Shown: positions 3,377 through 33,973 of the stretch, in pieces
Position numbering within the stretch: the stretch's first letter is position 1
Layout of the letters: every line of letters begins with the position of its first letter
Assembly: GCA_003228585.1 (NCBI GenBank)
Contig: QIEJ01000109.1
Span: 1 to 37,665 of the forward strand
Direction of reading: 5' to 3'
Origin: Pseudomonadota bacterium
Lineage (GTDB): Bacteria; BMS3Abin14
DNA: 37,665 bases
Translations under genes and position numbers: made by a program
Notes under the pieces: model-generated
Told to the model about the DNA's origin: nothing
The model's database searches: none
Seen by the model: only the letters and a program-made list of their open reading frames with translations

Positions 3377-4900
3377 TTATGCCGGGGCTTCCTCATCTTT
3401 GCTCTTCATCTTGTCCTTGATCAGCTTGAATGCCGGAAGAGCGAAGAGGAATAATGCGACAACCATGAATATTGCCGAAATAGGCCGGGTGAAGAAAATA
3501 CCGAAAGACCCGTCACCGATAATCAGGCTCTGGCGCAGGAACCTTTCGGTCATGGCCCCGAGGACCAGGGCCACCGCCAGCGGAGCGAGGGGATACTTGA
3601 GCTTCTTCATGACGTACCCGAGACCTCCGAAAACAAGGGTACACCACACGTCAAACATGAGGTTCCGCATTACATAACTTCCTATGAAGCAGGCGATGAC
3701 GATGACCGGGGTCAGGAGACCCCATGGTATCCTCATGATGGAAGCCAGGACCGGTGTCCCGATGAGGCAGATGATCAGGCAGGCCGTTCCGGAAAGGAAC
3801 AGACTGGCAATAAGCCCCCACACGAAGACTGGCTCCTCCAGGAACAACCTCGGCCCGGGCCACAGGCCCCACATGTAAAGACCCGCCAGAAGAACGGCCG
3901 CAGTGGGGGAGCCGGGGATCCCCAATGAGATCATGGGAAGCAGGGCGCCGGTGCCCGCCGCATTGGCGGCTGCCTGAGGAGCGAGAATCCCCTCGATGGC
4001 CCCTTTTCCGTACTTTTCAGGGTTTTTCGAGTATTGCTTGGCGATACCGTAGCCGAGGAACGAGGCCGGAGTGGCTCCCGTACCGGGAAGGATGCCCACA
4101 AAAAAGCCCATAAGGGCACTCAGTAAGGTCAGGCCGAAATGCTCTTTGGTAGCCATTATGCCGCCCTTGATATCCTCCCAGCCCAGCTTGGCATGGATGA
4201 CTTCCTTGATCTCTATGCTGAGCCGCTCCTCGCCGTCGATCATGATCTCACCGAGACCGAAGAGTCCGATGGTCACCGGAACGAAATGAAACCCACTTAA
4301 AAAAGCCATAGTCCCGAAGGTCAGACGCGGTGAACCCGTAACCACGTCCAGGCCCGCCATGGTCAGGAGAAGACCGAAGCTTGTGCTGATGAGGGTCTTC
4401 AGAGCGCCGCCGGTTCCCAGACCCACGAAAGTACTGAAGGCCAGCATCATGATGGCGAACATCTCGGGCGGCCCGAATTTCAGGGCAAACAAAGCCAGAG
4501 GCATGGCGAGGGTCACGAAAAAGACGGCCGCGACCATGATTCCCACGAAGGAGGACACGAAAGCGGCCGCCAAAGCCAGGCCCGCCTTTCCCTGCTTGGC
4601 CATGGGATATCCATCGAAGATCAGAGCCACCGACCAGGGTTCCCCGGGTATGGCAAACAAGATCGAGGTGATCACCCCTCCGTACAACGCCCCCCAGTAT
4701 ATGGCGGCCAGGAAGATGATGCCGACCTCGGGGGGAACGAGAACGGTGACAGGCAGCAAAAGCGCCACGCCGGCGGTGCCTCCGAGTCCTGGAAGAACAC
4801 CCACCGCCAGACCCAGTAAAAGGCCCACGGTCATCATGAACAGGGACAGAGGTTGAAATGCGACCCCGAATCCCACCAAAAGGTTAGCAAGTGTTTCCAT
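3377..4900 (-). CDS. tctA: Tripartite tricarboxylate transporter large permease TctA
   Basis: GVLPGLGG, YWGALYGG, GILPGTGAT, ANAAGTGALLPMISLGIPGSPTAAV motifs; 507 aa; adjacent to tctB and tctC. Confidence 0.95.
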   Translation of the reverse strand: METLANLLVGFGVAFQPLSLFMMTVGLLLGLAVGVLPGLGGTAGVALLLPVTVLVPPEVGIIFLAAIYWGALYGGVITSILFAIPGEPWSVALIFDGYPMAKQGKAGLALAAAFVSSFVGIMVAAVFFVTLAMPLALFALKFGPPEMFAIMMLAFSTFVGLGTGGALKTLISTSFGLLLTMAGLDVVTGSPRLTFGTMAFLSGFHFVPVTIGLFGLGEIMIDGEERLSIEIKEVIHAKLGWEDIKGGIMATKEHFGLTLLSALMGFFVGILPGTGATPASFLGYGIAKQYSKNPEKYGKGAIEGILAPQAAANAAGTGALLPMISLGIPGSPTAAVLLAGLYMWGLWPGPRLFLEEPVFVWGLIASLFLSGTACLIICLIGTPVLASIMRIPWGLLTPVIVIACFIGSYVMRNLMFDVWCTLVFGGLGYVMKKLKYPLAPLAVALVLGAMTERFLRQSLIIGDGSFGIFFTRPISAIFMVVALFLFALPAFKLIKDKMKSKDEEAPA

Positions 4901-5021
4901 TTATACCTCCTGCGCTGATGCCGTTCTCCAAAAAAACTCCAACGGTCTATTGGAGGCTATCAAATCGGCAACAGCCCTGTATCATCTCGTTGATTGAATG
5001 AATTGGATCTCAATAATCAAG

Positions 5022-5060
5022 TAAATAGGAAACAGTCCCTCTAAATAGGAAACAGTCCCT
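5022..5060. repeat. 19-bp perfect direct repeat duplicating the 3' end of tctB
   Basis: TAAATAGGAAACAGTCCCT at 5022-5040 and 5042-5060. Confidence 0.9.
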
Positions 5061-5514
5061 TCCGCCAGAGAAGGCTTTTGGGCAGAGGAAGCTTCAACCC
5101 TTTCTCCATGCCGAAATAAACGGCCCCTGTCATAATAATAGTAAAGATAATAACCGTGGCCCAGCGGTGTTTCCCGAGCCACCGGACGAAAAGAAGGCAA
5201 TAGCCTATAGTCGCGAAATAGACCCCAGTGTAGACGATCCCGATTGCGAGCAGAATCGCCGTGAAGAAGATCCGCACCACCTCTGCAAGACCCTCCTTGT
5301 TTTCAAAGAATCTGTCACCTGGATCTGTTTTCTTCAGGTTAATGACGACGAGTAATACAGCACAGACCAGCAGCAGCAAAGCCAGCCAGAAGACGGAAAA
5401 ACCCGCTTGAGGACCGTCTGCCTCCCAGCCGAAACCCAGCCGGGAAGCGTCCATAATCCCAATCAGGGCCACGAGAATAAAGAGCCCCGCCGTAATGATC
5501 TCACCTTTTTTCAA
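5041..5514 (-). CDS. tctB: Tripartite tricarboxylate transporter small subunit TctB
   Basis: About four TM helices, GPQAGF motif, C-terminal LKLPLP; TTG start with SD GGGAGG; lies between tctC and tctA. Confidence 0.9.
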   Translation of the reverse strand: MKKGEIITAGLFILVALIGIMDASRLGFGWEADGPQAGFSVFWLALLLLVCAVLLVVINLKKTDPGDRFFENKEGLAEVVRIFFTAILLAIGIVYTGVYFATIGYCLLFVRWLGKHRWATVIIFTIIMTGAVYFGMEKGLKLPLPKSLLWRKGLFPI

Positions 5515-5616
5515 AACTTGCCTCCCAGGGGTGCGACAAGAGGGGGCGCAGGATCACCGTAGTAACCCTGCACCCCCAATGTCAGCTTTCGTAAGTGAAT
5601 ACTCCTTAATCGAAGG

Positions 5617-6600
5617 CTACTTGAGCCAGCCCTGCGCCTTCATGATCGTGATGTGTTTTTTCTCATAATTCTCAACGAATTTCATCAGATCGTCACCCGT
5701 GATGGAGGTCGGCTGCAAGCCGGTTTTGGCCGCAAATGCCAGCCAATCCGGATCTTTGGAAATGTCCTTGAACAGAGCTACCAATCCTGCCTGCTCCGAT
5801 TTGGAAATACCCGGAGGAGCGAAGATGCCCCGCATCATGTTGTAGCTGAAGTCGAAGCCCAGCTCCTTGGCCGTGGGGGTGTCCTCATAACCCTTGACAT
5901 CGAGGCGCTCGTCCTGGAAGACCACCAGAGGGCGCACGAACTCGGGATAGAATGGACCGGCCTCACTGACCTGGTTCACGCTGGCCTCAATATGACCACC
6001 CACGAGGGCCTTGGCCACAGCACCGCCGCCCTTGAAGGGAACATACTTGAAGGGCTTGGTTTTGCCTATTTTCTCGATAGCGCGGAAGACGATCTCATCC
6101 TCCTGCTTGGAACCGGTTCCACCAACCAATATGCTCCTCTTCCTCGCCTCGCTGAGGAAGTCCTCGAAGGTCTTGAACTTGCTGTCCTTCTGGACCCAGA
6201 GCGGGAAGTTGTCCAGAGCAAGCAAGAAAACAGGCGTGAAGTCCCGGAATGTGAATGGAAGTTTCTGGAACAGCGGCGTGGTGACAAAGCTGTTCAGGGT
6301 GATGAGCATCATGTGGCCATTGCCCTTCTGGGTGAGAAGGTACTGCATGGCCACGGCCCCCGCGCCACCGGGCTTGTTAACCGGGATTATAACCTCGTCG
6401 ATGTACTTGTTCTTGACGTTGAGGCCGACCAGGAAACGGGCATATTTGTCGGCACCACCGCCCGCACCGGCTGATATGACGAACTCGACAGGCCTGGTAG
6501 GCCAGTCAGCGGCTTCGGCTACCTCGCCGAAGACAAACAGAACGGCACATACCATAATCGTAATAAGCACAAATGAATAACGTGATCTAATTCCACTCAT
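5617..6600 (-). CDS. tctC: Tripartite tricarboxylate transporter substrate-binding protein TctC (Bug family)
   Basis: Signal peptide ending AEA-A, then WPTRPVEFVISAGAGGGAD, NKPGGAG, VPFKGGG, ALVGGHI; SD AAGGAGG. Confidence 0.95.
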   Translation of the reverse strand: MSGIRSRYSFVLITIMVCAVLFVFGEVAEAADWPTRPVEFVISAGAGGGADKYARFLVGLNVKNKYIDEVIIPVNKPGGAGAVAMQYLLTQKGNGHMMLITLNSFVTTPLFQKLPFTFRDFTPVFLLALDNFPLWVQKDSKFKTFEDFLSEARKRSILVGGTGSKQEDEIVFRAIEKIGKTKPFKYVPFKGGGAVAKALVGGHIEASVNQVSEAGPFYPEFVRPLVVFQDERLDVKGYEDTPTAKELGFDFSYNMMRGIFAPPGISKSEQAGLVALFKDISKDPDWLAFAAKTGLQPTSITGDDLMKFVENYEKKHITIMKAQGWLK

Positions 6601-6954: not shown

Positions 6955-7950
<996 letters not shown>

Positions 7951-7998: not shown

Positions 7999-9189
7999 CT
8001 AGACCTTGTCGAAGTTCACCCAGTATACGTACTGGTCGACCTTGCCGTCCTTGGCTGCCTGGGTGAGAACCTTCGCCATGCTGTAGAACTCCTCGAGGGA
8101 GACGACCTCACCACCGAGACCGGCCATGAAAGAGGTAACAGGCGGAGGGTTGGGCACGTCGTACAGAGCGGACCGGACCTCATGAATAAGGTTTCCACCC
8201 TTCATGGCTCCACCGTAGGAGGTGCTCGTCTCGATGGTTCCAACAGCCTTGAACTTGGAAAGGCTCTCGGCAACAGCTTCTGTGGGGAACGGCCTCATGA
8301 AGCGCAGCCTCACCATACCAGCCTTGACGCCCTTTTCCCTGAGATGGTTCACGGCAAAACGGGCCGTCCTTGCGTGGCCGCCCTGCAGGAAGAAGACGAA
8401 CTCAGCATCGTCCGTCATGTACTCCTCCAGGAAGGGGTCGTAGTTTCGGCCGAACTGCTTGTTGAAGTCAGCGACGGCCTCTTCAATGACCTTGGGGGTA
8501 TCGATAAATGCCTGGGCTCTCTGGAGATCGATGGCCGGTCCCTGGTCGGGAAAGATCTGCGGACCGTGGGAGACAGGCTTAGTGGGATCCAGAGGATGGG
8601 GGTTGTTAAAAGGCGGCAGATACTCGTCCACAGCCTTCTGATCGGGGATGCTCACCTTCCCGGGGATGTGGGAAACGAAGTAACCGTCCTGGCAGCAGAA
8701 CTGGGGCAGCAGAACCCTGGCATCCTCACCGATCTTGAAATACATGATGGTGTTGTCCAGGACTTCCTGCGGATCGGCAGCCCAGCCCATGATCCATCCC
8801 TGATCTCGAGCGCTCATGACGTCGGTGTGCTCGGACCCGAAGTCACCTGGAGGATCAAGCGCGCGGTCTGCGATGGCCATCTGGCAGGGCAGTCGCCCGC
8901 CGGCGGCAGGAGAGTAGCACTCCATTGCGTAGGTCACACCCACACCGGAGCTTCCCGTGTAGGCCCTTGCCCCGGCAGCGGATGCTCCGTAAGCAATGGA
9001 AACCTGGGCATGCTCACCCTCGCCGTGAACAAACTCGGCATCGAGCTCGCCGTTGGCGACCAGTTTGGACAGTTCCATCATAATCCCCGTGTAGGGGCGA
9101 ATGGGGTAAGAGCTGATAACCTCGACTCTTGACAACATGGCACCGTAAGCTGCAGAAGAGCAGCCAGCCAAAAACATTTCTTTCGCCAT
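7999..9189 (-). CDS. oorA: Oxalate oxidoreductase alpha subunit
   Basis: YPIRP (Arg31, where PFOR has YPITP), GEGEH (Glu59), ADRALDPPGDFG (Arg109, Asp116, Phe117), GPQ (Gln211); these positions match the M. thermoacetica OOR numbering. Confidence 0.9.
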   Translation of the reverse strand: MAKEMFLAGCSSAAYGAMLSRVEVISSYPIRPYTGIMMELSKLVANGELDAEFVHGEGEHAQVSIAYGASAAGARAYTGSSGVGVTYAMECYSPAAGGRLPCQMAIADRALDPPGDFGSEHTDVMSARDQGWIMGWAADPQEVLDNTIMYFKIGEDARVLLPQFCCQDGYFVSHIPGKVSIPDQKAVDEYLPPFNNPHPLDPTKPVSHGPQIFPDQGPAIDLQRAQAFIDTPKVIEEAVADFNKQFGRNYDPFLEEYMTDDAEFVFFLQGGHARTARFAVNHLREKGVKAGMVRLRFMRPFPTEAVAESLSKFKAVGTIETSTSYGGAMKGGNLIHEVRSALYDVPNPPPVTSFMAGLGGEVVSLEEFYSMAKVLTQAAKDGKVDQYVYWVNFDKV

Positions 9190-9204
9190 TTTATATTCCT
9201 CCTC

Positions 9205-9552
9205 CTAGAAAGGTTTCTCCAGGCGGACCACACCACCTTTGAATTCCAGTTCGTTGACTGCGCTGATGCAATCCACGGGGCACTCGTTTTCACAGATGAG
9301 GCAGCCCTTGCAGTAGTCCGCGTTCCAGACCATCTTCTCTTCCTTCTCGTCCAGATGCCAGGTGGCATCGGGGCAGAAGAGAAAACAGTTCAGGCACAGA
9401 GTGCAGGCCTCATGGTCGATAACCGGACGGACAGTTCTCCAGTTCCCGGTGATCATCCCCTTGTTCTCTTTCTTGTTCGCGGGGAGAACCGCTCCCAGGG
9501 GGACCTGCAAGTGTTTAGGAATATTGAACTTTTCGCAGTACTTTTTGCTCAT
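9205..9552 (-). CDS. oorD: Oxalate oxidoreductase 2x[4Fe-4S] ferredoxin (delta) subunit
   Basis: GMITGNWRTVRP, CTLCLNCFLFCP and CKGCLICENECP; has its own SD (AAGGAG). Confidence 0.85.
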   Translation of the reverse strand: MSKKYCEKFNIPKHLQVPLGAVLPANKKENKGMITGNWRTVRPVIDHEACTLCLNCFLFCPDATWHLDEKEEKMVWNADYCKGCLICENECPVDCISAVNELEFKGGVVRLEKPF

Positions 9553-9581
9553 AACTTTCTCCTTCCAGGCTCAAAGACGTT

Positions 9582-10187
9582 TTACAGGTCTTTTACCACT
9601 GCTGACTCGTAGCCCGCTTTGGCACCCTCTTTGTTGGCCGACACCGCGACCAGGCTGTCAATGGTCAGGTTGTCAGTTCCGTGGCATGCAGCACCGGCCA
9701 GCACCGCCGAGATTCCAGCACCGACAGCGGAGACTTCAACGCCACCCTCAGATCCCATGAAGTCCAGACCTTCCATGGAGAACTCCTCCTCGGCGTCAAC
9801 ACAGATGATCTTGCTGAGCAGGTCCTTGTTGGGGATGAACTTGAGGATCTCATCGGGAGATCTCTTGGAGTTGACGACCAGGACTCCGCCTTTATCCATG
9901 CCCCAGAGAATATTCAATCCCTTGACGATGGTGTCGTCCATGATCACGACCAGGCTGGGGTTTTTGTTCTCATACTCGTAGCGCATCTCGATCTCTTCAT
10001 CGCTGATGCGGACATACTTCCGCAGTGGAACTCCAACTCTGTCAGGCAGGTCCGCATAATCGTCCCACGCCTGAACAAACTTGCCGTCCTTGTCCGCTGA
10101 GCTGGCCATGATAAGGGTCATGTGTCGCCCTTCCATATCCTGGACCACCCCGCGCGCCCAAATAGTAATTTCATATACATCGGACAT
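9582..10187 (-). CDS. Oxalate oxidoreductase gamma subunit (OFOR domain III)
   Basis: ITIWARGVV, VQAWDDYADLPDR, YENKNP, GSEGG (candidate Glu plug loop), GAGISA; matches the N-terminal domain of the fused M. thermoacetica third subunit. Confidence 0.85.
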   Translation of the reverse strand: MSDVYEITIWARGVVQDMEGRHMTLIMASSADKDGKFVQAWDDYADLPDRVGVPLRKYVRISDEEIEMRYEYENKNPSLVVIMDDTIVKGLNILWGMDKGGVLVVNSKRSPDEILKFIPNKDLLSKIICVDAEEEFSMEGLDFMGSEGGVEVSAVGAGISAVLAGAACHGTDNLTIDSLVAVSANKEGAKAGYESAVVKDL

Positions 10188-10263
10188 AATGATTTTCCTC
10201 CCTTGTTCTATTGGTAGAACTCCAGTTTTCTACATAGGATGATAGTCCTATATCCCCCCCCTT

Positions 10264-10980
10264 CTAGTCGGGTTTTACTGGTTCCTCCTTTCCTTTCACC
10301 CCAAACAGACTGATTTCTATATCCTCAAGGTGCTCACGCATGATGTCGGCCGCGAGCTCCTTATCCCCGGCTTTTACAAAATTTAACAACTCTCTATGAC
10401 GGACGAGAGACTTCTCGGGTCTTCCCTCTACCTGAAGGTACTGGTCACGGCTTTCAGCCAGAGCATCCATAACGCTGTCCATGATTCGAATGAGTATCTG
10501 ATTTTTCGTCGCCTGGACAAGCGTGCAATGGAAGGTCTTGTCGAAATCAGTGCCGGTCTCTCCCCTGGAAATCTGCTCTTCCTGCACGCTCAGGATCTTC
10601 TCCATCTCAGCAATCTCATCCGGTGTGGCTCGCTCCGCGGCCAGATAGGCCAACTGCGGCTCAATGAGGCGCCGCATCTCAAAAAGCTCCGCCAGAGCGT
10701 CCTTCTTCGAAAGGATTGCGGAGGCCAGCGGCTGGACCAGTGTTTCAACAGATTGGCTGGCTATATATGTTCCGTCTCCCTGCCGGCTCTCCAGATAACC
10801 CTGACTTTCCAACGTGCGAAGTGCCTCCCGGACGGATGACCGGCTCACTTTGAAAACTTCCGACAGCTCGCGCTCCGTAGGAAGTTGATCTCCGGATTTG
10901 AGTTTGCCCTGGCTGATCATGTCTTTTATTTTTGAAACAATCTCCTCGTAAACTCTGGTTTTTTTTACCGGCTTGAACAT
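10264..10980 (-). CDS. FadR/GntR-family transcriptional regulator (HTH plus FCD domain)
   Basis: LPTERELSEVFKVSRSSVREAL, QGDGTYI, C-terminal DKTFH...N...H...MREHL. Confidence 0.93.
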   Translation of the reverse strand: MFKPVKKTRVYEEIVSKIKDMISQGKLKSGDQLPTERELSEVFKVSRSSVREALRTLESQGYLESRQGDGTYIASQSVETLVQPLASAILSKKDALAELFEMRRLIEPQLAYLAAERATPDEIAEMEKILSVQEEQISRGETGTDFDKTFHCTLVQATKNQILIRIMDSVMDALAESRDQYLQVEGRPEKSLVRHRELLNFVKAGDKELAADIMREHLEDIEISLFGVKGKEEPVKPD

Positions 10981-10995
10981 TTGCAGGCTTTACAC

Positions 10996-13170
10996 TCAGT
11001 GCATCTGCTTGGGAACTATGGGATTGGTCGACACAATTGTGTGCTGGGTGGCAGCTTCCTCAAAATGCCTGGAGGTCACGACACAGCCCGTAAGATCCTT
11101 ATCCTTCCCACTCCCAAAGGCCTCTTCAATGGCCATCATAATGGCTCTTTTGCAAAGAGCCTCGATATCGGCTCCGGTCCATCCCTCGCCAGCCTGCAGG
11201 ATGGAATTGATATCCACATCGGTATCCAGTGGAAGAGAATCAAGATAGGTCTTCAGAATCGCCTCTCTTGCTTCTCGATCGGGAAGAGGAAATTCCATGA
11301 TGTAATCGAATCGCCCCGCCCTGAGCAGAGCCGGCTCAACAAGATCTATCCGGTTAGTGGCAGCAACTACGAAAACCCCCAGGGACCCGTGAAGCTCATC
11401 CAGTTCCCGGAAGAGCTGGCTGACTACCCTCTGGGAGACATCACTGGAGTACTCGGCCGAACGAGCCTGGGCGATGGCTTCGATCTCGTCCAGGAAAAGG
11501 ATGCACGGTGAAGCCTGCCTGGCCCTCTTGAACACTTCCCTCAGGCCCTTTTCTGTCTCCCCTACCCATTTCGAAAGAAGGGATGGGGGATCAACCATTA
11601 TGAGGGTCATGCCCATCTCTCCTGAAAGGGCCTTGGCCATCAGGGTCTTTCCGGTGCCGGATGGACCTGTGAACATGATACCCTTCGGTGGGCCGATACG
11701 GGTATTCGCGAAGATTGGCAGGTCGCGGGATGGGAGCTGCAGGATGGATTTGAGATTCCGCTTTATCTCCTTTAATCCTCCAACATCGCTGAAGGTAATG
11801 CGGGATCTTTCAGTCAGGAATTCCCGGGTTGAGGTTGGTTCCACTCCTTTGAAGGCCGTCAGGAAATCATCGGAGGTGACCTCGATCTTCATGCCCTTTT
11901 TCAGAGTCGGTTTGCTGTCTACTTCAAACTTGATGCCAGGCAGAATACGGCGAAGAGCCGCCATCCCAGCCTCTTTGCAGAGGGCGGCGATATCGGCCCC
12001 CACATATCCATGGGTGATCTCTGCCAGTTTATCCAGGTCCACATCGGCAGTCAGCGGCATCTTGCGGGAGTGGATCTTCAGGATCTCCAGGCGACCAGCC
12101 TGATTGGGCACACCTATGGTAATCTCACGATCGAAACGCCCGGGGCGCCTGAGGGCCGGGTCCACAAGCTCCGGCATATTGGTAGCGCCGATGATAACCA
12201 CCTCACCCCTTGCGACCAGGCCATCCATCAGGGCGAGAAGTTGAGCCACAACACGTTTCTCAACATCACCGATAACCTGGGCCCTCCTCGGAGCCAGTGC
12301 GTCTATCTCATCGAGGAAGATGATGCTGGGAGCATTTCTCCGGGCCTCTTCGAAAACATCCCTGAGCTTTGCCTCGCTCTCTCCATAGAACTTGTGGATG
12401 ACCTCTGGCCCGTTGACGTGGATGAAGTGCGCCCTGACCTCATTGGAGATAGTACGGGCCACGAGGGTTTTTCCCGTCCCGGGCGGTCCGGACAAAAGAA
12501 CACCCCGGGGTGGATCGATGCCCAGGGAGGTAAAGAGATCAGGGAACTTCAGGGGAAGCTCGATCATTTCCCTGATGTGAGTCAGTTCACTTTCCAGGCC
12601 TCCAATGTCCTCATAGGAAACTCTGTTTGCTTTCTCATGGGAGACGTCGGCAGCCTTAAAGTTGATATCCGTGTTGGCGGTAATACGCAGCGCGCCTCGC
12701 GGACTTGCCCCGTCAATGAAGAAAAACTGGGGACGGGTCCCAAACAGAGTAACCTGAACTTTATCCCCCTGTACGACGTGCTTTCCGGCAAGCAACTGCC
12801 TTATATGGGGAATCTCCGATTCTTTCGGGATGATGCTGGAGGTTTCCATGGGTGAGAGAAGGATACTCTCAGCCGATTTGTGGGGGACCTTTTCGATGGT
12901 GCACCATTCGTCTACTGTTACTTTTGCATTATCTCTGGTGATACCGTCGATCTGGATCAGATTCTGGCCGGAATATTCCGGAGTGGTCTGGGCAGCTCGA
13001 GCGACTGTCGATCCCCGACCGGAAATCTTAAGTGTTTCTCCGGGTACCGCTCCCAGACTCTTCAATACTGCCTCATCCACACGGGCAAGACCTTTTCCGG
13101 CCTCCTCGATAAATGCTTCGGCAACCCGCAGAGATACGTGCTGTATCGATTTAAATTTTGTTTTTTTCAT
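10996..13170 (-). CDS. Cdc48/VCP-family double-ring AAA+ ATPase
   Basis: CDC48 N-domain (GKGLARVD...IQIDGITRDNA); D1 GPPGTGKT / FLDEID / ALRRPGRFDRE; D2 GPSGTGKT / FLDEIE / ALLRAGRFDY. Confidence 0.93.
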   Translation of the reverse strand: MKKTKFKSIQHVSLRVAEAFIEEAGKGLARVDEAVLKSLGAVPGETLKISGRGSTVARAAQTTPEYSGQNLIQIDGITRDNAKVTVDEWCTIEKVPHKSAESILLSPMETSSIIPKESEIPHIRQLLAGKHVVQGDKVQVTLFGTRPQFFFIDGASPRGALRITANTDINFKAADVSHEKANRVSYEDIGGLESELTHIREMIELPLKFPDLFTSLGIDPPRGVLLSGPPGTGKTLVARTISNEVRAHFIHVNGPEVIHKFYGESEAKLRDVFEEARRNAPSIIFLDEIDALAPRRAQVIGDVEKRVVAQLLALMDGLVARGEVVIIGATNMPELVDPALRRPGRFDREITIGVPNQAGRLEILKIHSRKMPLTADVDLDKLAEITHGYVGADIAALCKEAGMAALRRILPGIKFEVDSKPTLKKGMKIEVTSDDFLTAFKGVEPTSTREFLTERSRITFSDVGGLKEIKRNLKSILQLPSRDLPIFANTRIGPPKGIMFTGPSGTGKTLMAKALSGEMGMTLIMVDPPSLLSKWVGETEKGLREVFKRARQASPCILFLDEIEAIAQARSAEYSSDVSQRVVSQLFRELDELHGSLGVFVVAATNRIDLVEPALLRAGRFDYIMEFPLPDREAREAILKTYLDSLPLDTDVDINSILQAGEGWTGADIEALCKRAIMMAIEEAFGSGKDKDLTGCVVTSRHFEEAATQHTIVSTNPIVPKQMH

Positions 13171-13206
13171 CGCCTAACGCCAAATCCTCCACACACATGA
13201 CGGCTT

Positions 13207-13339
13207 GGTGGTCAGACCAGACAGCCTGGCTAGCGTTGGTGGTACGGTGGTCAGACCAACAATCAACTAAAATAACCCTCAACAGCCTTGTTTGAGCTAA
13301 ATGTTCCTTGTTTGGTGTTGAGGTATGGTGGTCGGACCA
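13207..13339. promoter_or_regulatory. Three FadR/GntR-type operators GG-TGGTC(A/G)GACCA
   Basis: Palindromes TGGTCAGACCA at 13209-13219 and 13248-13258 and TGGTCGGACCA at 13329-13339, each preceded by GG. Confidence 0.8.
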
Positions 13340-13341
13340 AT

Positions 13342-13370
13342 AATGTAGGCCATGGAAAAGTCTTTGTCAA
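13342..13370 (-). promoter_or_regulatory. Sigma70 promoter of the cdc48-gntR-oor operon
   Basis: TTGACA (13370-13365), 17-nt spacer, TACATT (13347-13342); the predicted start site falls within the operator at 13329-13339. Confidence 0.7.
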
Positions 13371-13405
13371 TAGAATTCAGTATATGTGAGATCGCCCTCC
13401 TCTTT

Positions 13406-13431
13406 TACCTGTTTCGTCTACCTGTTTCGTC
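13406..13431. repeat. 13-bp tandem duplication
   Basis: TACCTGTTTCGTC twice (13406-13418, 13419-13431). Confidence 0.85.
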
Positions 13432-13507
13432 TTTTTCCCTTAAAAGAGTGGGATATTAATATTATAGCACTGAAATTCCCATTTTGAGAGAGAGGATGGA
13501 ATTTCTG

Positions 13508-13546
13508 AAAAAAAACACCAGCCCCCCCTGAAAGTGAGCTGGTGTT
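13508..13546 (-). terminator. Rho-independent terminator of pckG
   Basis: Minus strand AACACCAGCTC...GGGCTGGTG followed by a run of 8 T. Confidence 0.8.
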
Positions 13547-13573
13547 CTGGTATCGGCACTCTGAATTGTTAAG

Positions 13574-15367
13574 TCAGGCCTTGGCCAGTCTTTCCTTGAA
13601 GGCGTCCAGTTGGGTTCTCATGCGATCTGTTAAATGGCTGCCGAACTGCTCAAAATACTCCTCGATATCCGGTATCTCGCCCTGCCATAATTGGGGATCA
13701 ACCTCGAGAAGCTTCCTGAGATCCTCAGATGGGATGGAAAGACCCTCGAGATCAAGGTCACCCTCTCCCGGCATCAGACCGACAGGGGTTTGTTTCGCCC
13801 CCGCTTTACCATCGATCCTTTCACACATCCACTTCAAAACCCTGCTGTTCTCACCGAAGCCGGGCCACAACCATCGACCGTCTTCTCCCTTCCGGAACCA
13901 GTTGACGTAAAAGATCCTGGGAGCGTTCTCCCCCAGCCGGTCACCCATTTCGAACCAGTGCTGGAAATAATCGCCCATGTTGTAACCGCAGAACGGTGAC
14001 ATGGCGAAGGGATCCCGGCGTATCGGGCTGACCTTGTCGAGGATCGCCGCCGTGGCTTCGGAAGAAGCCGAGGCCGCCATAAAAACGCCATGATCCCAGT
14101 TAAAGGACTCGTACACCAGCGGGATGACCGAAGAACGGCGGCCGCCGAAGATAAATATGTCTATGGGGATCCCCTCGGGATCCTCCCAGTCGGGAGCTTC
14201 ACTGGGACACTGGCTTACGTGAGACGTGAAGCGGGCATTGGGATGGGCTGCCGGTTCATCACTGCCCGGTGCCCAATCCCTGCCTTTCCAGTCGATGGCG
14301 TGAGCCGGTGGAGGCCCGTCCATATCTTCCCACCAGACATCCCCATCGTCCGTCAGGGCACAGTTGGTGAAGATTGTCTTTTCCTTCAGCATTTCGTTGG
14401 CAACCGGGTTGGAAACACTGGAGGTGCCCGGGGCCACACCGAAGAACCCTGTTTCGGGGTTGATGGCGTGAATCCGGCCGTCAGACCGGATCTTCATCCA
14501 GCAGATATCATCACCCAGGGTCTCGGCCTTCCACCCCGGTATGGTCGGTTGAATCATGGCCAGATTGGTCTTGCCGCACGCGGATGGGAAGGCTCCGGCT
14601 ATGTGATATTTGCGGCCCTCGGGGCTGATGAGTCTCAGGATGAGCATGTGCTCGGCCAGCCAGCCTTCTCTTCGGGCCATGGAGGAAGCGATACGAAGGC
14701 TGAGGCACTTTTTGCCCAACAAGGCGTTGCCCCCATACCCGGAGCCGTAGGACCAGATGAGATTCTCCTCGGGGAAGTGGCTGATGTATTTATCCTTGAT
14801 GGGAGCGCAAGGCCATGGAACGTCTTTCTGGCCGGGCTCCAGCGGCGCTCCAACCGAGTGCAGGCAGGGGATAAACTCCCCGTCATCGCCGAGGGCTTCG
14901 ATCACCCTGTCTCCTACTCGAGTCATAATGTGCATGTTGCAGACCACATAGGGGCTTTCGGTTAACTGGACGCCGATCTTTGCCAGAGGAGAGCCTATGG
15001 GACCCATGGAGAAGGGAATGACATACATGGTGCGCCCCCTCATGCAGCTGTTGTAAAGACCCTTCATCGTTTCCTTCAGTTGGGTGGGATCGATCCAGTT
15101 ATTGGTCGGGCCCGCATCCTCCTCGGAAAGGGTACTGAGATAGGTGCGGCCTTCGATACGTGCGACATCGGTGGGATCAGACCGGAAAAGAAAACTCTCT
15201 GGACGCTTCTTCAAAGGAATGGCGGCGCCACTTTCCACCATCAAGGCCGTCATGCGATCGTATTCTTCCTTCGAGCCATCACACCAGCGGATCTGGTCAG
15301 GCTTACAAAGAGTGGCCATTTCATCGACCCACTGATTCAGTCCCTCATGTTTACACACCGCGGTCAT
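13574..15367 (-). CDS. pckG: Phosphoenolpyruvate carboxykinase (GTP)
   Basis: [58 protein letters not shown]; probable start ATG 15367 after SD GGGAG. Confidence 0.96.
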
Positions 15368-15453
15368 AGAACCATCTCCCAATTATCGTTTTATCCGGAA
15401 AGTAAAAAGGCATTCCCGGCGCATACCGGAGAACAGAGTTCTCCGACAGACTC

Positions 15454-15936
15454 CTAGCAGCGGTGAACCAGCACGGGGATCTTCGAATAACGGAGGATCT
15501 TTGTTGTCACGCCCCCCAGAATTGCGCCAACCATGCTGCTCACTGTGCTGTGCGATGCCATGAAGATAAGATCACAGTTCTTTCTTTCCGCGATCTTCAA
15601 TATGCCATCCACAGGGGATTCTCTGTCGATAAAGACGCCTTCAAAAACCACATCCGCATCGCTTGCCATCTTTTCAAGTTTTGACAGGACCTCGTCCGCC
15701 ATAGCCTTGTGTATTTTTTCAACCTGAGCCAGCGCATCCTGTGCTTTGTCGGCATCACCGCGTCCCCACAGGATGTCGGGCTGGTAGGTCTCCAGAATCT
15801 CCCCCGGAGAGAGTTTCGGCTCAACATGAACCCCTGTCACCCTGGCGCTGATGGCCTTGGCAAGCTTGACACCCTCTGTGAGGGCCTCTTCACAGTTCTT
15901 CGAGCCCTTTGTCGGAATGAGAATATTTTTGTACAT
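15454..15936 (-). CDS. Universal stress protein (UspA family)
   Basis: MYKNILIPT, CDLIFMASH, ILGGVTTKIL, IPVLV; ATG 15936 with SD GGGAGG. Confidence 0.92.
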   Translation of the reverse strand: MYKNILIPTKGSKNCEEALTEGVKLAKAISARVTGVHVEPKLSPGEILETYQPDILWGRGDADKAQDALAQVEKIHKAMADEVLSKLEKMASDADVVFEGVFIDRESPVDGILKIAERKNCDLIFMASHSTVSSMVGAILGGVTTKILRYSKIPVLVHRC

Positions 15937-16132
15937 GCAACCTCCCTTTTCACTGCCAATCGGTTCATGGAGAAACAAAACCACTTTTCTGATACCGAAG
16001 AGAGCGCGCCCCCCTGCCTCTTACACATCGGAATCAAGTACGACCGATGTGCCGCTGCCAACAACGGACCAAGCTTTAAATATTGGTCCAGCCCGTGTTT
16101 GTCAAGCCTGAACTGTAAATTCTATCACAAAT

Positions 16133-32691: not shown

Positions 32692-32721
32692 TGAAGGTCT
32701 TCGCCTATGCGAAGACCTTCA
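32692..32721. repeat. Perfect 13-bp inverted repeat with the thiC stop codon in its loop
   Basis: TGAAGGTCTTCGC-CTAT-GCGAAGACCTTCA. Confidence 0.85.
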
Positions 32722-33973
32722 TGGCGCACATCTCCGCGCACATGGAACATTCGTCCTCGAGGTTCTCTCTGTCTCTGAGCCTGTATCTGACCTCAATGGG
32801 ATCGAGGGACTGATCGATCTGACCCTGCCAGTCGAGGGCGGCACGGCACTGCGACATCTTAAGATCCTGCTCTATTGCCGCCTTGTTGCCCCTGGTGATA
32901 TCCACTGCGTGAGCAGCAATTTTGGTGGCAATGACACCTCGTCGAACATCATCCACATCCGGGAGAGCGAGGTGCTCGGCCGGGGTGACATAGCACAGGA
33001 AGTCCGCACCGGCCATTCCAGCCAGAGCTCCGCCGATGGCTGCGGTTATGTGATCATACCCTGCACCCACATCCGTCACCAGAGGTCCAAGAACGTAGAA
33101 CGGGGCCCCGTGACACAGCCTCTTCTGAAGAACCACGTTGGCCTGGACCTGGTGCAGCGGAACATGACCCGGTCCTTCAACCATCACCTGGACACCTGCA
33201 TCCCATGCCCGCTGTGTCAGCTCACCCAGGGTCATCAGTTCCTCGATCTGGGCGGGATCAGTGGCGTCTGCCAGGCAGCCGGGCCTCAGACCGTCTCCGA
33301 GGCTGATGGTCACGTCGTGCTCCCGCAGGATCTCGAGGAGTTCATCGTATCTGGTATAGAGCGGATTTTCCTCGTTCTCCCTCTCCATCCAGGCCGCCAG
33401 AAGTGAGCCTCCCCGGCTGACAATCCGCGTAACCCTGCCTGAAGACCTCACCCGTTCCACAGCCGACCTTGTGACACCGCAGTGCAGGGTAACAAAATCC
33501 ACCCCGTTCTCGGCATGGAGCCGAACCGTGTCGATCAATTCGTCAGGTGTAACCATGGATGGATCACCGTGTTTCTCATGGGCCCGTACCGCTGCGTCGT
33601 ATATGGGCACTGTTCCAACAGGCACCGTCGATCGGGCGATGATCTCCCGCCGCAATTCCTCCAGTTCACCGCCGGTGGAAAGATCCATGACGGCGTCGGC
33701 GCCCGCCTCGATGGCTGTCTCCAGTTTCTGAAGTTCCAACTCGGGGTCGTAACACGCCATGCTGGTGCCGATGTTAGCGTTAACCTTAACGGTGAAAGGA
33801 CCACCTACACCCCTCGGCTTCAGGGAAGTGTGTGCAGGATTGGCAGGAATAGCGGCTTTGCCGCTGGCCAATGCAGAACGGACTTCTTCGACATCCACGC
33901 CCTCTTGCTCGGCGACGTATTTCATGGCCTCTGTGATGCGGCCATCGAGAGCCGCAAGTCGCTGTGTACTCAT
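32705..33973 (-). CDS. thiC: Phosphomethylpyrimidine synthase ThiC (short anaerobe-type form)
   Basis: KVNANIGTS, MDLSTGG, GTVPIY, IVSRGGS, SLGDGLRPG, EGPGHVP, GYDH, LCYVTPAEHL, C-terminal CSMCAEMC; the upstream TPP riboswitch favours ThiC over BzaA/B/F. Confidence 0.92.
   Translation of the reverse strand: MSTQRLAALDGRITEAMKYVAEQEGVDVEEVRSALASGKAAIPANPAHTSLKPRGVGGPFTVKVNANIGTSMACYDPELELQKLETAIEAGADAVMDLSTGGELEELRREIIARSTVPVGTVPIYDAAVRAHEKHGDPSMVTPDELIDTVRLHAENGVDFVTLHCGVTRSAVERVRSSGRVTRIVSRGGSLLAAWMERENEENPLYTRYDELLEILREHDVTISLGDGLRPGCLADATDPAQIEELMTLGELTQRAWDAGVQVMVEGPGHVPLHQVQANVVLQKRLCHGAPFYVLGPLVTDVGAGYDHITAAIGGALAGMAGADFLCYVTPAEHLALPDVDDVRRGVIATKIAAHAVDITRGNKAAIEQDLKMSQCRAALDWQGQIDQSLDPIEVRYRLRDRENLEDECSMCAEMCAMKVFA

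Follow-up and report, generated by a model that had tools for sequence, protein, structure and literature searches.

What does a Cdc48/p97-type unfoldase do at the head of a bacterial operon for oxalate oxidation? The question is raised by a stretch of 37,665 nucleotides from a Pseudomonadota bacterium (GenBank assembly GCA_003228585.1, contig QIEJ01000109.1, positions 1 to 37,665 of the forward strand), hereafter called the window. On its minus strand, an open reading frame at 10996-13170, here named cdc48, is followed by a gene for a GntR-family regulator and by four genes, oorG, oorD, oorA and oorB, that are assigned by sequence to an oxalate oxidoreductase (OOR). The sequence-only reading of this DNA had taken the ATPase for a candidate dedicated activase or maturase of OOR. 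We found the genomic coupling of cdc48 and OOR to be tight and specific, as seen in synteny traced from both sides and in mirrored trees, so the genomic part of that proposal stands; its mechanistic part goes further, and we infer from the coupling both that OOR is the physical client of Cdc48 and what remodelling would achieve.

Relatives of the window Cdc48 are encoded by 246 stretches of species-representative genomes. Bacterial Cdc48-type ATPases are thus not rare, which corrects the earlier statement that the family is mainly archaeal and eukaryotic. The best 80 of these 246 stretches were kept and searched with the window proteins. In 23 of the 80, the ATPase is 62-83% identical to the window Cdc48. 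OOR genes are present in the same locus in 13 of these 23 loci at an identity of at least 62%, eight others end early (four after gntR and four in or at cdc48), and the remaining two, L016 and L019, hold oxalate-related genes; the genomes of these two and of L020 encode an OorA above the model cut-off on another contig. The closest homologues therefore sit in the same context as the window gene. Beyond them, L022, with a Cdc48 that is 52% identical, has the whole operon, and the remaining 56 of the best 80 loci (47-53% identical) lack OOR genes; one of them, L052, is surrounded by envelope housekeeping genes.

Starting from the enzyme, we scanned metagenomes with OorA and obtained 80 loci of 56-99% identity. 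A cdc48 gene lies directly upstream, on the same strand and at most 289 nucleotides from gntR or oorG, in 39 of the 80 loci, and it is found elsewhere in the locus in seven, one of them cut just upstream and the others with cdc48 44 nucleotides to 5.7 kb beyond oorB. Less than 1.5 kb of upstream sequence is available in 27 loci, which are uninformative. No cdc48 is seen in another seven; in five of them the genes run tctCBA-oorGDAB and the contig stops at oorB or 5.9 kb past it, and their sister loci carry cdc48 further downstream. The tally of 46 loci with cdc48, 2 clearly without it and 32 uninformative ones bears out the expectation that most OOR loci carry the ATPase.

The genes around this pair vary. 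The regulator is a GntR protein encoded upstream or downstream, or a Crp-like protein; the transporter is of the tripartite tricarboxylate type (TTT) or of the MFS type; and the electron module is a ferredoxin-type delta subunit or a delta fused to a GltD/SudA-like flavoprotein. Throughout these changes, cdc48 and the oor genes are constant. Loci of the L163 and L167 types, in which OorA is approximately 79% (702 bits) and 76% (672 bits) identical to the Moorella chain, respectively, have the order gntR-cdc48-oorG-(D)-A-B followed by an MFS transporter, and in L168 gamma and delta are fused, like in Moorella. These Moorella-like loci thus have the ATPase and the regulator that the sequence-only reading had named as neighbours of the Moorella oor genes. 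The stop codon of cdc48 overlaps the start codon of oorG (ATGA) in Acidobacteria-like loci. In beta- and gammaproteobacteria, the order is oorGDAB, a second oxidoreductase of the OFOR family, SudB/SudA-like genes, cdc48, a Crp-like gene and then either Oxc-like and Frc-like genes or FTHFS and formate dehydrogenase genes. The cdc48-oor association is among the tightest that gene neighbourhoods show.

Two features of these loci concern the enzymes themselves. The second OFOR between oorB and cdc48 consists of a fused gamma-delta protein of 356 amino acids and an alpha-beta protein of 773 amino acids (L101:12281-17861, L107, L121 and L012:3171-8823). In the Acidobacteria-like loci (L131:8092-9924; L127-L166), a 610-amino-acid GltD/SudA-like flavoprotein with Fer4_20 and Pyr_redox_2 domains, encoded between oorG and oorA, has the delta ferredoxin as its C-terminal part, and this fusion suggests that OOR is wired directly to NAD(P) there.

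The distribution of the two proteins across genomes follows the same line. In the window's phylum, sampled as 16 species genomes of one family (1.5-3.2 Mb), OorA exceeded the cut-off in 13 genomes, a Cdc48 68-81% identical to that of the window was present in 14, and 12 had both on one contig with a spacing of about 1.8-2 kb. The exceptions stem from contig breaks, in genomes of 71-100% completeness, and one genome that is 97% complete, G012, has neither OorA nor Cdc48. Outside the phylum, OOR was found in 1 of 85 sampled genomes of other families (G055), on a contig of 2655 bases that is uninformative for the neighbourhood. The window's lineage may be specialised in oxalate.

A second phylum, that of L018, was sampled with 151 genomes. 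OorA exceeded the cut-off in eight and is frameshifted in a ninth. A Cdc48 at least 64% identical to that of the window occurs in ten; nine have oorA 1.1-1.8 kb away on the same contig, and in the tenth, G102, oorG and oorD lie at the end of a contig that stops after oorD. No OOR-type Cdc48 was found in the other 141 genomes of this phylum. As none of the 151 reaches the TIGR03254 cut-off for oxalyl-CoA decarboxylase (19 score 513-537 bits), this sample cannot separate oxalate use from OOR. In the order of L016, by comparison, 33 of 201 sampled genomes have an oxalyl-CoA decarboxylase above the cut-off, and the centre genome is the only one with OorA and the only one with the OOR-type Cdc48; the OOR-type Cdc48 is absent from all 32 oxalyl-CoA decarboxylase genomes without OOR. 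The ATPase therefore follows OOR and not oxalate use generally, in a test whose positive side is one genome, picked for having cdc48. A separate observation from the second phylum is that 30 of its 151 genomes (G114, G141, G152 and others) encode an OFOR alpha subunit that scores 372-422 bits on the OOR model and has no Cdc48 beside it. By their scores, which fall between true OOR (at least 580 bits) and other OFORs, these proteins are assigned to a sister enzyme family.

The histories of the two proteins run in parallel. For a tree of Cdc48, 117 full-length sequences were reduced to 76 by removing copies of at least 88% identity and then to 55 by removing every second row of a clade linked to gas-vesicle-like clusters (described below); the tree was a quick LG+G4 one without an outgroup. 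The gas-vesicle rows group together in a single clade (20 rows, SH-aLRT 100), and all OOR-linked rows fall on the other side of the tree, in several lineages, with L052 pairing with L022 on long branches. For the window and the 20 loci in which both proteins are complete, patristic distances of Cdc48 and OorA correlate with a Mantel r of 0.91 (0 of 2000 permutations as high), and the trees of these 21 rows give the same main groups, so the co-phylogeny that the sequence-only reading had asked about is indeed found. The clades mix phyla, which suggests that the operon moves as a unit, and its patchy occurrence over many phyla likewise suggests transfer as a unit. A chance recent import of the ATPase from archaea was rejected, as Cdc48 forms a deep, bacteria-wide clade that mirrors OorA.

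The product of 10996-13170 is a Cdc48/VAT-family protein by sequence and by fold. The minus-strand frame gives a stop-free translation of 724 amino acids, in which an N domain (residues ~1-185), a D1 module (~186-455) and a D2 module (~456-705) are followed by an unconserved tail. Pfam recognised CDC48_N (60-63 bits), two AAA domains (282 bits together) and two AAA_lid_3 domains. When the N-terminal 185 residues were searched alone, CDC48_N scored 62.9 bits (cut-off 35.1) and CDC48_2 a marginal 22.0 bits against a cut-off of 22.4. The NCBIfam model TIGR01243, "CDC48 family AAA ATPase", was aligned over positions 2-706 of 733 with 800.5 bits (801.8 in the genome search) and thus missed its cut-off of 802.65 by 1-2 bits despite the full-length alignment.

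Like the archaeal and eukaryotic members of the family, the window protein has the N-D1-D2 arrangement. Its closest solved relative by sequence is Thermoplasma VAT (5g4f, 630 bits), and by fold it is p97/Cdc48: an AlphaFold2 monomer model built on 25 relatives (mean pLDDT 80.6) matched full-length p97/Cdc48 chains, including the N domain, over approximately 710-730 columns with an E value of 4e-74. Residues 11-171 of the model are mostly strands (pLDDT 82-92), which fits the double-psi barrel plus beta-clam that makes up the N domain in the Cdc48/VAT/p97 family. Both ATPase modules are intact, as the sequence-only reading had stated; they belong to the classic clade and have Walker A, Walker B, sensor 1 and the arginines of the second region of homology: in D1, GPPGTGKT, the acidic pair DE at 287-288, the pore loop KFYGESE, sensor N331 and arginines R341/R342/R345; in D2, GPSGTGKT, DE at 561-562, KWVGETE, N606 and R617/R620. 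Aromatic pore loops, which VAT has in both rings, are therefore found in both rings of the window Cdc48 as well.

The C-terminus has been read correctly, too. It ends in PKQMH, and as the penultimate residue is Met, the tail is not of the HbYX (hydrophobic-Tyr-X) type that docks onto proteasomes. No conserved motif is found in the C-termini of its relatives. A genome search with PF00227 yielded no 20S proteasome, the sole hit being hslV, which adjoins hslU. With unconserved C-termini and only hslV-hslU in the genome, delivery to a proteasome is unlikely, and a role as proteasome activator was rejected. The window Cdc48 differs from VAT, Cdc48 and p97 in being bacterial, in lacking HbYX and a 20S partner in its genome, in lying within a catabolic operon and in being co-inherited with a single enzyme.

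What could such a machine do for OOR? OOR is the only OFOR without a coenzyme A (CoA) acceptor (PMC12337175). The invariant D1, the missing proteasome route, the constant cdc48-oor pairing and the CoA-free chemistry of OOR lead us to favour an ATP-driven reactivase, with an assembly helper in second place. The Cdc48 hexamer would serve one client, OOR, and would be made from the same oxalate-controlled promoter, probably in smaller amounts. The aromatic pore loop of its D1 ring would take hold of an OOR subunit, and ATP-driven loosening or pulling apart of the complex would allow an active site blocked by a dead-end thiamine pyrophosphate (TPP) adduct or a damaged cofactor to be emptied and reloaded, which would make Cdc48 an "OOR activase". 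First assembly and the loading of cofactors could be served in the same way. On balance, we think it fairly likely that Cdc48 is a dedicated helper acting on OOR; within that expectation, reactivation takes about half and assembly or maturation a third.

A specific version of the reactivase starts from self-poisoning of the enzyme. OOR reportedly undergoes "suicide inactivation by pyruvate", to go by the title of a 2017 paper. Lacking a CoA acceptor, OOR might be left with dead-end TPP adducts by pyruvate-like, off-target 2-oxoacids, and a Cdc48-type activase might then pry the complex open for cofactor exchange. We hold this version only tentatively, and on present odds it is rather doubtful.

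The same unfolding activity could serve removal. Cdc48 might unfold damaged or surplus OOR for a housekeeping peptidase, or dismantle it, so that a radical-forming, iron-rich enzyme would be cleared instead of repaired. Such a turnover or quality-control factor fits the same synteny and the unfoldase-competent pore loops of both rings, and Cdc48-type ATPases usually feed degradation. We nevertheless consider it unlikely, given that a 20S proteasome, an HbYX tail and a conserved C-terminal docking motif are all missing and that making destroyer and target from one promoter would be wasteful, though possible. Less probable again is a general stress chaperone. It would be induced along with OOR to deal with the damage that growth on oxalate does to many proteins (through metal chelation, radicals, CO2 and acid load), and OOR would be no special client. 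The poor conservation of the N domain among OOR-linked lineages would suit such a chaperone, as would the placing of the proteobacterial cdc48 in a large cluster with Oxc-like, Frc-like, FTHFS and formate dehydrogenase genes. The absence of this Cdc48 from the 32 oxalyl-CoA decarboxylase genomes without OOR and from the 141 OOR-less genomes of the second phylum points the other way, as do the constant place of cdc48 beside oorG when the genes are rearranged and, in one lineage, the translational coupling of the two.

Two further readings have little in their favour. Since gntR follows cdc48 after 15 nucleotides without a ribosome-binding site of its own, and a GntR/FCD gene is present in many loci, Cdc48 might strip or unfold the GntR repressor and so tune induction. 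This is made very improbable by the position of the regulator gene, which stands apart and upstream in NC10-, Acidobacteria- and Moorella-like loci, and by its exchange for a Crp-like gene in proteobacterial clusters, since the cdc48-oor link persists throughout. We give the smallest chance of all to a passenger gene in a horizontally mobile operon, with no role in oxalate metabolism: the patchiness of the operon in many phyla does suggest unit transfer, but Cdc48 is kept from 79% down to ~40% identity alongside OorA, its D1 motifs are invariant, the gene was retained through several changes of gene order, and it was lost together with OOR in G012.

Several observations weigh against a dedicated OOR helper or narrow what it could be. 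One metagenomic locus (L139) has gntR-oorG and the following genes without a Cdc48 in 21 kb, and another (L125) keeps only a 28-residue remnant of the Cdc48 C-terminus before oorG (L125:2445-2528); OOR can therefore exist without an adjacent cdc48. Many loci are close kin and not independent, so that the 46 positive loci correspond to nearer eight independent lineages, and the co-phylogeny of Cdc48 and OorA could come partly from shared organismal descent. Within the ATPase, no OOR-linked lineage has lost the D1 motifs or the KFYGESE pore loop, and D2 is intact in the window's clade, but the Walker B glutamate of D2 is replaced by threonine in the Acidobacteria-like clade (L140, L159), and the D2 pore loop and arginines are lost in Moorella-like loci (L163, L168). 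A two-ring mechanism is thus not uniform, and the common motor is D1, being invariant where D2 is variable. Conservation is lowest in the N domain, where Cdc48 usually binds clients or adaptors: distant OOR-linked lineages share 27-40% identity there, which does not exceed their identity to the gas-vesicle clade, and a conserved OOR-specific N domain was accordingly not seen. Complex prediction with the N domain (residues 1-185) and the OorG, OorD and OorA alignments, run without controls and with OorB left out, gave scores of 0.00 and 0.00, which speak neither for nor against binding. Both the binding of Cdc48 to OOR and an effect on the enzyme are, in the end, what we infer from genomic coupling.

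A dedicated OOR helper has partial parallels among known systems. The actinobacterial Cdc48-like protein Cpa is described as a proteasome interactor (PMC6017811). Cpa is, like the window protein, a bacterial Cdc48 homologue, and one with an assigned physiological partner; it differs in that the window genome has no proteasome and the partner proposed here is a metabolic enzyme. In the literature searched, Cpa was the only bacterial Cdc48 homologue found with an assigned partner. The proposed logic, an ATP-driven remodeller that lies beside one enzyme and frees its blocked active site, would be analogous to that of Rubisco activases (Rca, CbbX, CbbQO), which are AAA+ proteins, and of the reactivases of the B12-dependent diol and glycerol dehydratases, which are not. 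To our knowledge, none of these is of the two-ring Cdc48 type or acts on a TPP/iron-sulfur oxidoreductase, and the AAA+ members belong to other clades.

The literature search yielded no paper that connects Cdc48 with OOR or another OFOR, with a mention in the primary OOR papers not excluded, and a role on OOR would probably be new for the Cdc48 family. We also know of no job assigned to bacterial Cdc48-type ATPases outside the actinobacterial proteasome system; a whole clade tied to one enzyme offers a concrete client. If the ATPase does repair or assemble OOR, this would explain how a radical-forming, CoA-independent thiamine enzyme stays active, would extend the idea of an enzyme activase beyond Rubisco and B12 enzymes, and would mean that Cdc48 is needed for active OOR in other hosts, for example in oxalate removal or CO2-reduction catalysis. 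Should the self-poisoning version hold, Cdc48 would be the first thiamine-enzyme activase, and OOR the first defined client of a bacterial Cdc48.

The next bacterial Cdc48 clade is likewise tied to one gene cluster. It comprises 56 loci in L023-L080 (e.g., L026:9375-12103 and L069:5946-8904) and lies in gas-vesicle-like clusters. A GvpH/Hsp20-like gene is present in 51 of the 56, mostly upstream, and GvpF/L in 42; other neighbours are GvpK, a GvpN-like AAA protein, a sigma-54 activator, Hsp70 and a DnaJ-like zinc finger protein. This nearest bacterial sister has approximately 50% identity and the same motifs as the OOR-linked ATPases and differs in its Gvp neighbours, the absence of OOR and its position as a separate clade. 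The literature search found no paper linking gas vesicles with Cdc48. If the OOR reading is right, the two clades together would make bacterial Cdc48s client-dedicated machines driven mainly by the D1 ring.

The enzyme encoded behind the ATPase was identified from its subunits, all on the minus strand. OorA (7999-9189, alpha subunit, 396 amino acids) scored 601 bits on NF045791 against a cut-off of 500. OorB (6955-7932, TPP-binding beta subunit, 325 amino acids, with TPP_enzyme_C) scored 562.7 bits on NF045792, below the cut-off of 590. OorG (9582-10187, domain-III or gamma-like subunit, 201 amino acids) and OorD (9205-9552, ferredoxin subunit with two [4Fe-4S] clusters, 115 amino acids) matched NF045790 over model positions 13-206 (206.3 bits) and 225-315 (96.2 bits), respectively; both scores are below the delta cut-off of 230, and the delta model is split over the two genes. 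The beta and delta pieces are best hits to their OOR models by a wide margin, and genome searches with the OOR alpha model leave a gap between ~540-627 bits and scores of at most 422 bits. The nearest solved enzyme is the OOR of Moorella thermoacetica (PDB 5C4I, 5EXD, 5EXE): OorA aligns with its alpha chain (5c4i_A) at 536 bits over 392 residues, the next solved OFOR reaching 213 bits, and R31, R109, D116 and F117, which we take to be substrate-site residues, are identical in the alignment. The window differs from Moorella in having four genes instead of three, the 316-residue Moorella delta being split into OorG (its N-terminal two thirds) and OorD (its C-terminal third). It also has a TTT-type transporter where Moorella-like loci have an MFS protein. 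The last residues of OorD (~101-115, encoded at 9205-9250) form a tail, ELDFxDGVVRLEKPF, that most OOR loci with a split delta share but the Moorella-like L156 lacks; its absence from L156 led us to drop this tail as a candidate handle for the Cdc48 pore.

The transporter genes tctC (5617-6600), tctB (5041-5514) and tctA (3377-4900) lie on the minus strand (3377-6600 together) directly behind oorB, as they do in related loci, in which TctC and TctA are 73-86% identical. From this position, TctCBA is likely the oxalate uptake system of the operon, which would be a new substrate assignment for a TTT system. The collected loci also extend anaerobic oxalate oxidation by OOR far past the acetogens, with a wide occurrence in sediments, soils and groundwater. 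The sequencing runs that hold the window stretch come from hydrothermal-vent and marine-sediment samples.

At the front of the operon, the minus-strand spacer of 403 nucleotides upstream of cdc48 holds a promoter-like site (TTGACA, 17 nucleotides, TACATT; 13370-13342) with 10 of 12 consensus matches, the only minus-strand one between the phosphoenolpyruvate carboxykinase gene and cdc48, which is a match to the consensus and does not by itself imply function. It is followed by three palindromic operators of the FadR/GntR type, TGGTCYGACCA, at 13339-13329, 13258-13248 and 13219-13209, the first of which abuts the -10 hexamer. Allowing at most one mismatch, this pattern has seven strand-matches in the window against 1.58 expected (none of 100 shuffles reaches seven); six of the seven are the three palindromes counted on both strands, and perfect copies occur nowhere else in the window. 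The ATPase gene thus lies directly under an apparently operator-controlled promoter, as first proposed, and the short gap behind it was likewise placed correctly: the cdc48 stop codon TGA (10996-10998) is followed by 15 nucleotides and the gntR start codon ATG at 10980. The regulator (10264-10980, minus strand) is a GntR-family protein of 238 amino acids with an FCD domain. Within 9100-13700, terminator-like hits number four, no more than in shuffles (mean 5.2).

Strong Shine-Dalgarno sites precede oorG, oorD, oorA, oorB, tctC and tctA, the site of cdc48 is poorly spaced (14 nucleotides), and gntR has none. This pattern would fit a sub-stoichiometric helper. Contigs of two metatranscriptomes, which at 90-95% likeness stem from relatives, cover oorB to oorG and barely gntR or cdc48; such contigs do not allow genes to be ranked, and cdc48 sequences diverge more quickly than those of oor, so no conclusion on cdc48 transcription is drawn from them.

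Some neighbouring features of the window deserve mention. ThiC, the thiamine pyrimidine synthase, is encoded at 32705-33973, ~20 kb from the OOR operon, among the housekeeping genes for PolA, GlnE and GatAB and with no apparent link to it. Genes for a GTP-dependent phosphoenolpyruvate carboxykinase and a universal stress protein (13574-15984) precede the operon and are kept beside it, in either orientation, in loci of the window's own phylum and in Deferrimicrobia-like loci. Between the end of the carboxykinase gene and the promoter-like site, the 153 nucleotides at 13383-13535 are replaced by 5 letters in one contig (run X10, depth 142), a strain variant that leaves the promoter-like site and the operators intact.

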